The position numbers and the translations under genes were made by a program. A stretch of 64,000 bases of DNA from Carcharhinus longimanus. Taxonomy: Eukaryota. Numbering within the stretch: the stretch's first letter is position 1; each line of letters starts with the position of its first letter. This document shows, piece after piece, positions 1,102 to 53,986 of the stretch. The notes below the pieces were generated by a model. It was not told the DNA's origin and ran no database searches. It was given only the letters and a program-made list of their open reading frames with translations. The stretch covers positions 98,565,776 to 98,629,775 of the forward strand of contig JASCQW010000027.1 in assembly GCA_030264375.1 (NCBI GenBank), read 5' to 3'.

Positions 1102-2515
1102 AATGAAGGCTGGCAGCTGCGATGTGAAGCTGAATGTAGAAGAAGTGCAAGAAAGTTGAAGTGACTTCAAAGAGGTCGGCGATCGCCTGTCAAATGTGGA
1201 AAGCTGCTTCGCTGATCGAAGGCTACCCTGCCTGTTAGTTAGTATGGAGAAGCACTCCCTGCTGTGCACTGGCCTGGCTGACCCTGGCCAATTGTTAACA
1301 ACTCTGCGAATAGGTTTACTGGCCGTAAAACTGGAACGCAGGGTGAATGAAACACGCTATTGCTTTTCTATAACTGAATTACCTTCCTGGCTTTTCAAGT
1401 GTGGTCCCATCAGCTTCCAACCTAGCTGGATAAAACCTGGAAAAGAGCGGGATGGCATTGCGATACAGACCCAGCATCAAGTTAAGGGGATTTGTCTGCA
1501 TGTACACGCCCAAACTCACCCCCCATTGCCAGTGAAAATGCCCATTGCTTCTTAACACCTAACAAACTGATTCTGTTTTCGACATCTCAAAGACGTTATA
1601 TCCTCCTTGATCAAAACCGTTGGCCCTCTTTTTTTTAATCCATTCCTTCTCTTTGCTGCATGACTTGTATCCAGGAATGTTAGACATCCACCCCCACTGC
1701 ACCCACTTTTTTGAACAAGATCTGTTATCTACATATTCCCGCGTGGATATTGGGTCTGCAGCTCACCAACCTTAAGAACCACACTTTCTGCATTTGCACA
1801 GATATAGACCGTGGCTAACATGGAACTCTTCATATTTAATACTTTCCCACCAGACATATAGATGGGTCCTCTGGGATGTGTGTCCCAGATAACCTCGCCT
1901 CTTGGAACTTGTTTAATTGGCTTCAAATGTTGGGCAGGAATTTACTAGCGGTTTCTTTTCTCTCAATCCTGGTGTCATTTTTTACTCCTGGGAGATTGCA
2001 AGGCTAATTTGATGGGTTGAGCTGGAGGAAGATCACTGTGTTCAGAAATGACACTGTGATAGTATAGAAGCAGCTGATTTTTACTGTCCTTTGCTTTCAT
2101 GTTGTGCCATATGCTGTGCGAGCTTGTAGAGAATTCAGATATGTTTCATTGCTATTCAACAATTCAAGCAAAGCAATAGATTGTAAGGACGCCAATGACA
2201 AATTACTTTCCCTTCCTTATTTCTTTTTTAAGTTTAGCAAGTTTATTGGAATTTGCATTAATCTGATTGTCATTGCAGACAACACCCAATAACTTTAAAC
2301 TAAAATATGACAAATATTTCAAAAAGCAGTTGAGTATCAAAAAGTAAGGTTAACTCAATTCCATCAATAATAATATCTTGTTCTTGCTTTTCTTTAACTC
2401 CTGTTGAATGTTCCATGGAGTTTTAGTTCTATTATATAGTCTTTCCACTGGCTAGCTGAAATGTTTTTACAATGTAGAAATTACAAATATCATGTTCTTC
2501 TGTTTTAACGAGCAG

Positions 2516-2704
2516 ATTGGAAGTTGTACCAATCAAATGGGACAGATCACAATAGTCACGCTTCATAATTCCAATCCTAAAGTTATTGAGTGTTTCAACG
2601 TTGAGTCTCGCATACTGGCTATGGTGTATGTCCCAGATGATGACAAACCAGAAGAATCTGAGGTCTTTCCTGACTTGGAATCTACAACTACAAAGACCAC
2701 TGAA
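2516..2704 (+). CDS. ARHGEF10: ARHGEF10 internal coding exon A (3' end lost in N gap)
   Basis: After ttttaacgagcag acceptor reads IGSCTNQMGQITIVTLHNSNPKVIECFNVESRILAMVYVPDDDKPEESEVFPDLESTTTKTTE, matching recalled vertebrate ARHGEF10 IGSCTHQMGQIAIVSFQNSTPKVIECFNVESRILCMLYVP. The donor and about 11 codons (expected PTICxGTEEG) fall in the gap 2705-2783. Confidence 0.93.
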
Positions 2705-2842
2705 NNNNNNNNNNNNNNNNNNNNNNNNNNNNNNNNNNNNNNNNNNNNNNNNNNNNNNNNNNNNNNNNNNNNNNNNNNNNNNNCAATATAAAATCAGTCA
2801 AATAAATAACAGTCAGGACATATTGGGCTCCTGCTGGTGTTT

Positions 2843-3011
2843 CATAGAATCTACAGTGCAGGAGAAGGCCATTTGGCCTATCGACTGTGCACTGACTGAC
2901 AATCCCACCCACATCCTGTCCTGGCCCTGTAACCCAACATATTTACTTTCCTAATCATTAAGGGGAAATTTATCAAGGCCAGTCAACCTAACCCACACAG
3001 ATTTGGACTGT
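2843..3011 (-). mobile_element. HE1-like V-SINE with tail A, partial
   Basis: catagaatctacagtgcaggagaaggccatttggcc tail followed by the ggccagtcaacctaacc...tttggactgt V-domain end. Confidence 0.8.
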
Positions 3012-26958: not shown

Positions 26959-28351
26959 AACAGGAAAAAGGTGGTGTCATTCAAATCTGTTATGTCTGGG
27001 TCCTGGGTGCCTTTCACATCTTATTATCTCAGGGTCTTGTTGGTTTGTATACGCGATCGCAGGTGCAGCTGGTCCTCTAAGTACACTAGCTAATCTTCAT
27101 CCCGCAAACCCATTTTTCTCTCATTTGCCACTTGTAGCACCAGGATTGTACCTGAATTGGCTATGATTGCCCAGGACATAAAAAACATGACTATGCTTTG
27201 CACATAATGCATTGGTTAAGTTTTAGGATAGCTTGACTATGTGAAAAGGCAGTGCTTAAGTGAAAGTTTGATCTTGCTTTTACAGGAGGAATGGCTTTCT
27301 AAAACGGCATTGCTCTTCATGTCTATTTCAGAAGCACAACTGTGAATATGGCTTGACCAATCTTGTATCTTGCGTATAAATCTTGTAATAGTACACATGC
27401 ATTCTTCCAATCCAAATCAGTTAAATGATTCAAATGTACTGTCAATTTCAAACTCGTTCATGAGTGATCAGAGGATTTGCTTGCAAGGAACTGAGCCTGA
27501 CAAAGGGAGTCCATCCCTAAGGCATTAGGAGACTTTGGACATAAGAATGTGGAGGCAACTAGCACTGAATGTTTCCAGATCAGTTTCCAGATGGATAACA
27601 AATGTTACTTTTCCAAATTAATGCTTACTGCTACTGGTGCATCCATCATGTGTGTGATCAAAATGACAGCTAACTGATAGGAAATTCCAGAACTTGGGCA
27701 TGAAACTAATTTTGTTTTATGGAATCATCTTAACATTATGTAAAACATTTATTTATATTGATTGTGAGGAATGTTTATGCTGAAAAATAATTTCGTCTAC
27801 CTCCGTTCCATTCTTAAGTTAAAACTTTTATACATTTGTCAATGAGTTTGAAATTGAGAGTGCGTTTTGATCATATATCTGATTTGGTTTGGAAGAATTT
27901 ATGTGCACTATTACAAGGCTAATTCCTTACAAAGTTCTACTTAATAAGAAGGCCAACCGTTGAATTTGATGGCATTTTGTGGGTTATTGATTTTTATCTC
28001 ATCCACTACACACATCATTTAGATCTGCAATACTTTCTGTTAACCTTTTAAATAGCAGAAGTTGCTAATAATGTTTCACTATTGAAAATATCGCTAGAGG
28101 ATCTGGGAAGGGCTATGTGCATGTGAAAGGAAATGCATTGTTATTTGTCAATTGATATAAATAGTAAAGCTCCAGAATTATTTATCACTAGCAGCTACCC
28201 AGCCAGCCATGTCAACACAGTAAAGATTACTTACTAGAATTGTATAGGATTGTAGGTTTGTAGCCTTTTGTAGGTTGTTGCATAAGGTTTATTTCTCATG
28301 GGATCCAGGGTGAGGTATCTAAATGGATGCAAAATTGGCTTCTTGACAGAA

Positions 28352-28496
28352 TAAGAAGTCTGACAACACCAGGTTTAAGGCCAACCGATTAATAGTAAAC
28401 TCACAAGCTTTCGAGGTTTCCCTCTTCGTCAGGTGACGAAACTGGTGTTGTCAGACTTCTTACTGTGTTTACCCCACTTCAACGCCGGCGTCCCCA
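28352..28496. mobile_element. PLE family B non-coding hairpin insertion nested in CR1
   Basis: Perfect 21-bp inverted repeat (28352-28372 / 28442-28462), 34-bp tail, perfect 13-bp TSD cttcttgacagaa (28339-28351, 28497-28509). Confidence 0.9.
28401..28436 (-). ncRNA. minimal type I hammerhead ribozyme motif, intact core
   Basis: Minus strand UCAC CUGACGA A GAGG GAAA CCUC GAAA GC UU^GUGA: stem I UCAC/GUGA, stem II GAGG/CCUC with a GAAA tetraloop, palindromic AAGCUU stem III. Activity untested. Confidence 0.8.
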
Positions 28497-29952
28497 CTTC
28501 TTGACAGAAGCCAGAGGGTGGTTGTAGAGGGTTGTTTTTCAAACTGGAAGCTTGTGGCCGGCGGTATGCCTCAGGGGTCAATGTTCACAGGTCCACAGTT
28601 ACTTGTCATTTATATTAATAATTTGGATGAGAATATAGGAGGCAAGGTTAGTAAGTTTGCAGATGACACCAAGATTGGTGGCAGAGTGGACAGTGAAGAA
28701 AGTTATCTCCAATTGCNNNNNNNNNNNNNNNNNNNNNNNNNNNNNNNNNNNNNNNNNNNNNNNNNNNNNNNNNNNNNNNNNNNNNNNNNNNNNNNNNNNN
28801 NNNNNNNNNNNNNNNNNNNNNNNNNNNNNNNNNNNNNNNNNNNNNNNNNNNNNNNNNNNNNNNNNNNNNNNNNNNNNNNNNNNNNNNNNNNNNNNNNNNN
28901 NNNNNNNNNNNNNNNNNNNNNNNNNNNNNNNNNNNNNNNNNNNNNNNNNNNNNNNNNNNNNNNNNNNNNNNNNNNNNNNNNNNNNNNNNNNNNNNNNNNN
29001 NNNNNNNNNNNNNNNNNNNNNNNNNNNNNNNNNNNNNNNNNNNNNNNNNNNNNNNNNNNNNNNNNNNNNNNNNNNNNNNNNNNNNNNNNNNNNNNNNNNN
29101 NNNNNNNNNNNNNNNNNNNNNNNNNNNNNNNNNNNNNNNNNNNNNNNNNNNNNNNNNNNNNNNNNNNNNNNNNNNNNNNNNNNNNNNNNNNNNNNNNNNN
29201 NNNNNNNNNNNNNNNNNNNNNNNNNNNNNNNNNNNNNNNNNNNNNNNNNNNNNNNNNNNNNNNNNNNNNNNNNNNNNNNNNNNNNNNNNNNNNNNNNNNN
29301 NNNNNNNNNNNNNNNNAAAAAAAGGCAGCATGGACAAATTGGGCCGAAGGGCCTGTTTCCATGCTGTAAACCTCTATAACTGTATGATTGAATATATTTG
29401 AAAATTATGAAGCTAAGGCTAATTACATTTTGTATGATATCCAGCAATTCCCTACAACTGGAATCTAGGCAAATTTTCAAGTCAGATTGGATGCAGTAAT
29501 GTTTTGTATATTGTAGTGTTTCAGACTGAATGTACTCTGCAGGGTTGGGTTTGCAGTGTTTGGAAAGGGTTGGGTAGTTTAATCATGGAAAACTAAATCT
29601 GATCGCAGTTGAAACATGAAAATGTTATCTCTATTTGCGTCTAGTCCAAACACAAAGTAATGAAATAACGATTGAAATTGGAGGCCTTTGTTACAGAATT
29701 ATTGGTGGAATTTTCCCATATTTTGTCTGAGTGTCAGGTTCTTACTGAAGCAGCATGTATTGATCCTGACATGCAGCTGGGTCTTCCAACCAGATATTCA
29801 GCCACTCTGACAAAACAAAATCAGGGAGCATGGTAAATGCTGTCAATCTGGAAGGGGCGCCATCTCTAAAGGTTAAACTCTCCCTGCGTGCCCACGCAAC
29901 TCGCCCTATGCTACCAGAAAGATTCTGGGGAGNNNNNNNNNNNNNNNNNNAC

Positions 29953-50149: not shown

Positions 50150-52232
50150 TATGAGTTGGAGGTGCTGGCGTTGGACTGGGGTAAACACAGTAAGAAGTCT
50201 CACTACACCAGGTTAAAGTCCAACAGATTAATTTGGTAGCACAAACTTTCGGAGGGCTTGTCAGTCTACACTCTTCAACCAGACAAAATCGAAGTTCTCA
50301 GCCAAGGGCTCGACTTCTGTCCCACCACCAAAATGGACCCCATCAGTCTCACAGCAGACAGAGAGGAATTGATCAGGCGAATGAGGCGGTGGGAGTTCTT
50401 CCACAAACCCCAAGAGGCCAACAGCGAACCCAATGAGACAGCGAATGAACCAGAACAGCCGAGAGATCCACAGTGCAGCAACCAAAGAGGAAAGAGTCGA
50501 ATTGGACCCCTCCGGAAGGCCGCTGCCCTCGCCTCGACATGTATGCCCAAGCCATCAAGCGGTGCATCAATGCCAGATTCATTAGCCACACTCACAAGAC
50601 AGCCCGAAANNNNNNNNNNACTGAACAGAATGGATTACTGCAAGGAAGTGTACAAACAACTGAACAATGAGGAACACTGCAGACAGTTACCCGCAGATCC
50701 ACACCCAACTGAACAGACTGATCAAGACTTTGACCCGGACCTTCAGAGCACTCTGTGTGCTCTCATCCCACGTACTCCCCATATTGGAGATCTCTACTGC
50801 CTCCCAAAGATACACAAGGCCACCTGGCCATCCCATCGAATCAGGCAATGGGAACCTGTGTGAAAACCTCTCCTTCTACGTCGAGGACATCCTGAAACCC
50901 ATCGTGCCAAGAACCCTTTGCTTCTGTNNNNNNNNNNNNNNNNNNNNNNNNNNNNNNNNNNNNNNNNNNNNNNNNNNNNNNNNNNNNNNNNNNNNNNNNN
51001 NNNNNNNNNNNNNNNNNNNNNNNNNNNTGAAAACCTCTCCTTCTACGTCGAGGACATCCTGAAACCCATCATGCCAAGAACCCTTAGCTTCTGTTGCTAC
51101 ACTATGGACTTCCTACAGAACGGTAGCACACATGGAGCAGTTGAACCAGGAGCACTCCTTGTCACAATGGATGTCTTGGCACTCTAGATCAGCATCCCCC
51201 ACGACGATGGCATTGCTGCAGCTGCCTCAGTACTCAACGCCGACAACTGCCAAGTTCCAGAAGTAATTTACAACTCATCCGCTTCATCCTGGACCACAAC
51301 GTCTTCACCTTCAACAAACAGTTCTTCACCCAGACTCACGGAACAGCCATGGGGACCAAATTCACACCTCAATATGCCAACATCTTCATGCATCGGTTCA
51401 AACAAGACCACTTCACTGCACAGGACCTTCAGCCGATGCTGTACACGAGATACATCGATGACATTTTCTTTCTTTCATTTGGACTCACAGCAAACAATCA
51501 CTGAAACAACTACATAATGACATCAACAAGTTCCATCCCACCAACAGACTCACCATGTATTACTCTCCAGAAGTTTTGGACACAGGCATCTCCATCAAGG
51601 AGAACACCATCCACCAGGTATGCGGTACATACTCTTGCAACTCGGCCAACATTGTCTACCTGATACACTGCAGGAAAGGATGTCCCAAGGCGTGGTAAAT
51701 CAATGAGACCATGCAGATGCAACAATAACGGATGAATGGACACCACTAAACAATTACTAGGCAGGAGTTTTCCCTTCCTATATGAGAACACTTCAGCAGT
51801 CAAGGGCATTCAGCGTTCTCCAAGGCGGCCTTCAAGACACACGACAACACAGAATCAGTGAGCAGAAACTGATAGCCAAGTTCCGCACGCATGAGGACAG
51901 CCTCAACCGGGATCTTGGGTTCATGTCACGCCATCTGTAACCCCCATGANNNNNNNNNNNNNNNNAAAATCTCACTAACTGTCCTGTCTGGAGACAATTC
52001 ACACCTCTTTAACCTGTGCTTAACCCTCTCTCCACTCACATTATGTGTAGCTGTAAAGACTTGATTACCTGTAAAGACTCGCACTCCAACCGTTACCTTG
52101 TAACTAAGTCTGTGTCTGTAAATGCCCTGTTTGTGAACCCAACTCTCCACTCACCTGATAAAAGGGCAGTGCTCTGAAGGCTCACGCTAATAAACAAACC
52201 TGTTGGACTTTAACCAGGTGTTGTGGGACTTT
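50150..52232 (+). mobile_element. Penelope-like element family B: decayed RT + GIY-YIG with inverted 5' terminal repeat
   Basis: EVLSQGLDFCPT, LYCLPKIHK, LLVTMDVLAL, QTHGTAMG (51340), YIDDIF (51451), VYLIHCRKGCPKAW*INET (51654), EQKLIAKFRTHEDSLNRDLG. The 3' repeat 52148-52232 is present inverted, with an extra tail, at 50150-50253. Many frameshifts and deletions. Confidence 0.92.
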
Positions 52233-52925: not shown

Positions 52926-53847
52926 ACTACATGAGACCTCCGAGTGTAATAACCAAACCTAAAGAATTCAACAATTCCAAACAAGAATCAGGACCTAGAT
53001 TGTTTTGTTCTCTGCTGGGGCACTCACGCGCCTTTGATTTTCCTATCCACTCAAGTAAATGAGAAGATGACCGCAAGCTGGTGATTGGAAAAACAGAAAA
53101 TGTTGGTTCAAATCTCACATTGTTGTGGCTCTATCGAGCGTATTTTTAGCACTGAAATTTCTGTGGGACGATTGCTCAGTGATTTCTTATTCTGTGTTCC
53201 TCACAAAGGCTCATTAATAAGAGCTCTGGAGAGGTTTACAAGGTGTCTTTTGAAGGTAACACTCAATCAAGATGTTCACAGATTTAATGACTTTGTAGGC
53301 AAAGTGGGGAAAACTTGAATTGCTGACTTCCTTTGTTTATTTGTTCTGGGGATATGAGCATTCTTGGCAAGGTTAGCATTTATTGCCGATCCCTAGCGTG
53401 TTAGTGATGAGCCACCATTTCAAACCACTGCAGTTTGTGCAGTTGAAAGTACTTTGTAGTTCAGGCGGGAATACAGGAATTTTGGCCCAATGAAGAGGAA
53501 GTAACGATGGCATATAGGGTTGATGCGTGACTAGGAAGGTGATGATGTTCCCATACATCTGATACTACGGGCACAGCTTGTATTTATATAGAGCCTACAT
53601 GTACTATACCTTATTTGTAAGTTCAGGACTATGACTACCACTTACCAGACCAAAGACAACAATAACAGACCTGATTGTCGCATATTATCGGGAGCTCATA
53701 GGTTTCGGCAAAGTCTTTTATCATACCCTGTTACCCACAGTTACTGGACCATGGAATGGGAGTTGGAGAGTGCTGGGAGGAGGGAAGGGGCATGAGAATA
53801 GGCAGATGCTGCCTTAATGATAGGGAGAAAACTGCCATCAAAAACTA

Positions 53848-53986
53848 CAGTAAGAAGTCTCACAATACCAGGTTAAAGTCCAACAGATTTATTTGGTATC
53901 ACGAGCTTTTGGAGCGCTGCTCCTTCATCAGGTGAGTGGTATCTTGCTGTGCCAACCCTAGTCCATCACTGGCATCTCCATATCAT
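53848..53986. mobile_element. PLE family B short insertion (inverted terminal repeat plus tail), hammerhead with one core change
   Basis: Minus strand 53899-53935 UCAC CUGAUGA A GGAGC AGC GCUCC AAAA GC UC GUGA (G12 to A at 53910, a CpG-type change). Plus-strand tail ctgtgccaaccctagtccatcactggcatctcca follows. Confidence 0.85.

Follow-up and report, generated by a model that had tools for sequence, protein, structure and literature searches.

An inverted, 5′-truncated copy together with a 30-40-bp tail is given as the usual layout of Penelope-like element (PLE) insertions in the available parts of PMC8557442 and PMC3846280. In the inverted-pLTR units of EN+ PLEs described there, an inverted truncated pLTR lies beside a direct copy within a TSD, the 30-40-bp tail is present at one end only, the pLTR carries a hammerhead and the junction shows microhomology. 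The 145-bp insertion studied here, from the shark Carcharhinus longimanus, is alike in these respects, with an inverted truncated pLTR and a 30-40-bp tail at one end, all inside a TSD. It differs from the described units in that both arms are shorter than 100 nt, no ORF is left and stumps of this kind are very common in the genome. A twin-primed, extremely 5′-truncated layout is already in print, and the 145-bp insertion is ordinary.

For PAc, a Poseidon element of Anolis carolinensis, PMC11167929 (as far as available) describes a protein that cuts both strands and extends each of them, with two start sites that flank the tail. It primes in vitro without homology and does not depend on hammerhead cleavage for insertion, the hammerhead being located upstream of the start sites. 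The shark family appears alike in its two RT starts bounding the tail, in the cutting and extension of both strands, and in a hammerhead that lies upstream of the start sites and would be dispensable for insertion. It differs from PAc, as described in that source, in that it has a CX2-5CxxC linker, in that the ORF begins where the tail ends instead of within the hammerhead, and in that genomic matches between TSD and element RNA are above chance, unlike the homology-free priming of PAc in vitro.

Animal non-LTR retrozymes are also non-coding and PLE-derived, with a type I hammerhead and a long TSD, according to the available parts of PMC7229834 and 10.64898/2026.07.22.740005. They are built of head-to-tail tandem units, most of them a few hundred bases long, and have circular RNAs. 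The 145-bp copy, in contrast, is a head-to-head hairpin with a single hammerhead and a unique junction.

Structure of the insertion and its hammerhead

The window, a stretch of 64,000 nt from contig JASCQW010000027.1, holds the insertion inside a LINE (Table 1). Element positions with a minus sign are counted from the tail end. The preliminary description had listed perfect 13-bp TSDs, an inverted PLE terminal repeat, a perfect 21-bp inverted repeat and a 34-nt tail, all of which were read in the sequence. The TSD sequence CTTCTTGACAGAA is identical at 13/13 positions in its two copies. Other copies of the host LINE align across the empty site and carry a single copy of it, which indicates that the repeat at 28339 and 28497 is a true TSD. 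The host LINE, which from its motifs we take to be a CR1, matched Pfam RVT_1 at E 0.008, below the curated cut-off; two ORFs of the window and a short piece of the host gave no Pfam match.

Table 1. Features of the insertion and its immediate surroundings in the window.
Feature	Positions	Strand	Remarks
TSD, left copy, 13 bp	28339-28351	+	12-13 bp is the family mode (44/66)
Inverted pLTR arm, tail-less, 85 nt	28352-28436	-	Spans element positions of roughly -39 to -129
Minimal type I hammerhead	28401-28436	-	Stems I and II of 4 bp each; core with an extra A after A9
Junction spacer CGAAA, 5 nt	28437-28441	+	Occurs with the unique junction
Short sense arm, 21 nt	28442-28462	+	Perfect inverted repeat of 28352-28372
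PLE tail, 34 nt	28463-28496	+	Ends immediately upstream of the parent element's ORF
TSD, right copy	28497-28509	+	First 9 bases match element RNA beyond the tail end (7/9)
Host LINE RT fragment	28497-28715	+	Continues the frame left of the insertion

The element sense of the inverted arm is on the minus strand. The changes in this arm are 1 substitution and a 5-nt deletion through which AATAAA is lost, and the tail carries 4 substitutions with respect to the family majority. The whole copy differs from the subfamily majority by about 5 substitutions and the 5-nt deletion. As this is near the subfamily mean of 3.6%, the copy is not specially young, and the earlier view of it as young is not supported. 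No ORF and no second hammerhead in tandem are present in it. The spacer and the TGA next to it mirror 28425-28431 (TTCGTCA/TGACGAA), and a fold-back or template switch is likely to have produced the spacer, judging from this match. Folding of the whole 145-nt strand gave z = -4.8, with 0/200 shuffles as good, a result that the inverted repeat alone would give.

The hammerhead string claimed in the preliminary description is present with every core letter. On the minus strand the order is UCAC (28436-28433), CUGACGA (28432-28426), A, GAGG-GAAA-CCUC (28424-28413), GAAA, GC, UU and GUGA (28404-28401). Cleavage is predicted to fall between 28405 and 28404, and an AAGCUU palindrome stands in place of helix III. 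C3-A9, G12-A14, U16.1-H17, the extra base before 10.1, G10.1-C11.1 and palindromic 15.2-16.2 were all found, and this core, extra base and palindrome support the earlier assignment to the minimal, dimer-type hammerheads as a sequence class.

The extra A occurs in 133/134 cores of the family and the AGCU palindrome in 125/134. Stem II pairs over at least 3 bp in 39 of 47 distinct variants, which are related and not independent, compared with a mean of 1.7 and a maximum of 7 in shuffles. To judge from the sequences compared, the hammerhead fold is kept at family level. From one subfamily to another, stem II (L121-L210, L211-L300) varies much more than the pLTR on either side of it but stays paired. 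An Rfam scan of 27500-29500 at E up to 10 returned no hammerhead family. A mir-3923 match at E 9 in Rfam was taken as chance, arising from the inverted repeat.

Metazoan PLE pLTR hammerheads, as described in the available part of PMC4209133, are alike in their short helix I, the extra base between 9 and 10.1, G10.1-C11.1, the palindromic helix III region and a stem II that is very variable but paired. They also occur as singles scattered as truncated PLEs, and some are paired on opposite strands. The schistosome motif of that source has a stem II of 7-8 bp, compared with 4 bp here, and the 145-bp copy differs further in having lost 2 of the 6 bp of stem I. In vitro, such minimal PLE hammerheads were poor cleavers, active only when dimeric or when a helix III was added; sharks are not named among the PLE hammerhead hosts in the same part of PMC4209133.

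The description of the motif as intact is correct for the core letters but not for the predicted structure. Truncation leaves 4/6 stem I pairs in the 145-bp copy, compared with 6 bp in uncut relatives. The spacer CGAAA forms a predicted 6-bp hairpin with the catalytic core, and 5/7 core bases are predicted to be more than 94% paired. The predicted gap between the active dimer and the best fold is 17.4 kcal/mol, compared with a median of 4.3 in 40 uncut relatives. In these predictions the active fold is not favoured in the 145-bp copy, and its hammerhead would be a misfolded passenger.

The parent family, its junctions and its arm lengths

A BLAST search of the 2.68-Gb genome with the 145 bp gave 65 matches from the 40 candidates scored out of 1784. 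Exact genomic copies numbered 1135 for a 46-nt tail pattern, 2851 for a 30-nt inner piece and 270 for the hammerhead 34-mer (28400-28433), with 0 matches to the reversed sequence of each of the three patterns. Tail and pLTR run into a PLE frame in L076 and L303, and in L303 the endonuclease end, a pLTR with hammerhead, the tail and the ORF start are found in partial tandem. L312 matched Pfam RVT_1 above the cut-off, while the two endonuclease fragments gave no Pfam match. By eye, a GIY-YIG-like YIGET motif was read in L303 and L319, with downstream H motifs as well. A C-X4-C-X2-C linker precedes the endonuclease, as CHSNLCKTC in L303 and L316 and as CHSNLCKAC in L319.

According to the available part of PMC8557442, Neptune and Nematis have a CX2-5CxxC linker between RT and EN, which Penelope/Poseidon lack. 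The presence of this linker in the RT/GIY-YIG frame points to a Neptune-type EN+ PLE as the parent, an assignment made from motifs read by eye and from the criterion of that source. A 'Poseidon' label for the parent was dropped once the linker motif was read. The Penelope origin given in the preliminary description agrees with the joining of pLTR and tail to an RT/GIY-YIG frame in L076 and L303, and the family sequences also support mobilisation by a PLE RT/GIY-YIG protein, as it had suggested. No intact ORF was found in the 21 ORF-bearing loci (from 151 matches) of this gappy assembly; long 'open frames' considered as intact parents ran through assembly gaps in the loci read. A search of the literature (subscription papers, Repbase/Dfam and bioRxiv supplements apart) found neither a shark-type family nor arm-end clustering.

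Other PLE pieces were seen in the window. At 50164-50608 lies an older-subfamily PLE in which a minus-strand tailed pLTR arm is joined to a plus-strand PLE ORF fragment, and this is probably the 'family B' of the preliminary description. Related-subfamily pLTR stumps occur at 1030-1100, 52147-52231 and 53842-53939, two of them with decayed hammerheads. In another locus, L318, an open frame at 2171-2866 (minus strand) beside PLE fragments resembles, by a motif, the C-terminal exon of a prostanoid-receptor-type GPCR.

The junction 24-mer of the 145-bp copy had 1 match in the 2.68-Gb genome with up to 1 mismatch allowed. Among the best 30 BLAST loci the outer ends were common and the middles nearly all different, L003 and L004 having an identical junction. 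As an unselected sample we used the first 90 of the 1135 tail matches by position (L031-L120). Assembly gaps adjoin 44 of the 90. The assembly breaks at long PLE hairpins, so that short inserts are over-represented and the census is biased to short copies. The sample contained 32 gap-free two-arm inserts of 77-344 bp, and in 26 of these the inverted arm starts at -25 to -42. Within the 26, the inverted arm was the longer in 14 and the tail arm in 6, and a whole hammerhead was present in 8. The fact that either arm may be longer indicates that neither arm was copied from the other.

The first 91 of the 270 exact-hammerhead arms by position were also followed; 40 enter gaps or pass the ruler and 51 end, and among these last, which share the exact hammerhead, 49/51 junctions are distinct. 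Recurrent junctions amounted to 6/27 in one set, and 2 of those 6 were read. L212 and L266 have a common junction but belong to different subfamilies and show opposite arm roles, which indicates that shared junctions can arise independently through microhomology. The comparison of junctions between copies that had been proposed earlier thus gave a unique junction for this insertion and nearly all distinct junctions in its relatives, with some recurrence. L221 and L273 lie on different contigs but have the same arm end, followed by 20 nt or more of identical non-PLE flank. L221, which has a TSD of its own, also contains a gap at this place, and the shared flank may be a mis-assembly or mis-join or a captured flank.

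In the 162 hammerhead-bearing loci of the 270, 8 same-strand hammerhead pairs less than 1 kb apart were found, none of them a tandem array, and 4/8 span assembly gaps. Tail-only and arm-only stumps with their own TSDs occur too. The 145-bp form is not a self-propagating unit but one of thousands of clipped PLE ends.

Priming and the origin of the hairpin

In L1 twin priming, two cDNAs from opposite nicks are joined at microhomology and leave an inversion within the TSD. The second priming site varies in L1, whereas in the shark PLE family it is fixed near -38. We consider it highly probable that the 145-bp insertion is an extreme 5′-truncated Neptune-type PLE copy, likely twin-primed, in which the hammerhead is a passenger predicted to be misfolded. 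The element endonuclease would nick the two strands 13 bp apart inside the LINE. The top-strand end would prime RT at the inner start, about 38 nt before the tail end, and be extended by 85 nt through the hammerhead, and the bottom-strand end would prime at the tail end and be extended by 55 nt. The two cDNA ends would be joined via short matches, with a 5-nt fold-back patch, and repair would then yield the TSD. These steps are likely; they are drawn from finished insertions, among which no intermediates were seen. The truncation-inversion product that had been offered as one option is supported by the unique junction and by the free variation of both arms.

Priming was studied in 66 two-arm inserts with a TSD of at least 11 bp, the TSD being 12-13 bp long in 44 of them. 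The subfamily base was identical in both arms in 48/48 scorable inserts (18/66 were not scorable). TSD ends matched the element sequence immediately beyond the arm over at least 2 nt in 28/66 cases on the left and 37/66 on the right, with about 4 expected for each, in a set that includes query-selected loci and with a threshold that slightly favours matches. Arm-to-arm microhomology of at least 2 nt was found at 13/17 junctions. Together with the cutting of both strands and the two start sites in vitro (PMC11167929, as far as available), the genomic arm data make twin priming the simplest account.

The spacer, as a fold-back of the arm end (TTCGTCA/TGACGAA), and the constant agreement of both arms in subfamily would also be explained by a single priming followed by fold-back, in which one cDNA or antisense transcript self-primes the second arm and no two nicks are needed. 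For inverted junctions, self-priming on an antisense template is preferred in the available part of PMC3846280, which counts against twin priming. However, the tail arm here is too short to be the template for the inverted arm, and the inverted arm has no tail. Both length orders occur (14 against 6), and both outer ends are fixed, each with target-RNA matches. Self-priming of the second arm is in our view quite improbable here. Long inverted repeats are unstable and junction microhomology also marks deletions, and both points count for a longer inverted-pLTR insertion that later lost the middle between its arms and left a stump. Against such a loss, templated patches are often present at junctions, tail-only and arm-only stumps with TSDs exist, and ends cluster at one element position regardless of the partner, so that it must be judged extremely improbable.

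The preliminary description had also offered a retrozyme-like family, in which the 145-bp hairpin would be transcribed, self-cleave as a dimer, circularise and be re-inserted whole by the PLE enzyme. Dozens of look-alikes of 134-159 bp have their own TSDs, a few junctions recur, and animal retrozymes are reported to derive from PLE pLTRs (10.64898/2026.07.22.740005, as far as available). The look-alikes were chosen by query similarity, however, and unselected samples form a continuum of arm lengths. The junction of the 145-bp copy is single genome-wide, and the one shared by L212 and L266 joins copies of different subfamily and arm role. The predicted cost of the active dimer argues in the same direction. 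Retrozymes are defined by tandem hammerhead units in the available part of PMC7229834, and the 162 loci held no array. With a unique junction, distinct arm junctions and no arrays, the retrozyme reading is largely refuted, and we hold it to be very unlikely.

Arm ends and a candidate transcription start

The positions where arms stop were counted in 94 arms anchored at -62 to -91. At -124 to -136 there were 15 ends over 449 nt at risk, compared with 35 over 3221 nt, an excess of about threefold (p 0.006 after scanning), 2 of the 15 being internal deletions. No end excess was detected at the cleavage site, where 8 events were counted over 487 nt at risk (p 0.34), which agrees with an uncleaved RNA template. 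A second arm set gave p 0.053 in the broad window; at -129 to -131 it gave 11 ends in 230 nt compared with 0.019 per nt elsewhere (p 0.009), with the 145-bp copy of the window left out and L231 moved to -129. Since 67/83 arms read through, the end excess is modest. Genome-wide, arm ends of this stem II variant numbered 24 at -130, 16 at -131 and 5 at control position -134, with 3 and 6 read-through substitutions removed from the end counts and with a control that has 3 more fixed bases and fewer arms at risk.

The supply of microhomology was rejected as a cause of the ends at -130, as a crude score gave p 0.71 alone and the peak was kept (p 0.016). A spliced template was rejected as well, because the letters beyond the ends differ between copies. 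An extra C after -131, which would be a cap signature, was present at 8/16 true ends, not significant against one third, and at 3/5 control ends. Stem I begins with the A at -131, which lies in TCCATT and follows TATAT at -161 by exactly 30 nt. By the promoter consensus, TATAT is weakly TATA-like and TCCATT is initiator-like. With the A in an initiator-like site 30 nt past a TATA-like one, run-off at the mRNA 5′ end is possible. Fold-back of the near-palindrome TCAGGTGA is an equally good explanation of the ends at -130 and -131.

A tentative and rather doubtful proposal is that the stumps record the PLE cycle. Both target ends would anneal to the RNA at fixed RT starts, part of the arms would be run-off cDNAs from a capped mRNA 5′ end at -131, and RT would often start in the 5′ pLTR and pass the uncleaved hammerhead. 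If so, the closeness of these starts to the mRNA end (95-130 nt) would account for the abundance of tiny hairpins.

Two further observations concern the same region. In L097 the 5′ half of the hammerhead occurs in three short tandem repeats before the tail, each from about -130, which look as if RT had jumped back near -130. At -157 to -163 of the pLTR (for example in L202), the TATA-like box is nearer the consensus in antisense (TATAAAG). An antisense TATA reading was noted for rotifer pLTRs in the available part of PMC3846280, and antisense transcription of the shark pLTR from TATAAAG is possible.

The single 145-bp insertion matters little, being a dead stump of known layout. The family, on the other hand, offers useful natural data on a PLE step that is poorly understood, and its stumps support, at the genomic level, priming from two ends at the start sites known from in vitro work. 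Beyond the PLE literature cited here, they add short matches between target and RNA at each priming end, and a 2-3-fold excess of arms that stop at the first bases of stem I, next to a TATA/initiator-like spacing. The arm-end data point to a testable transcription start at the first base of the ribozyme.
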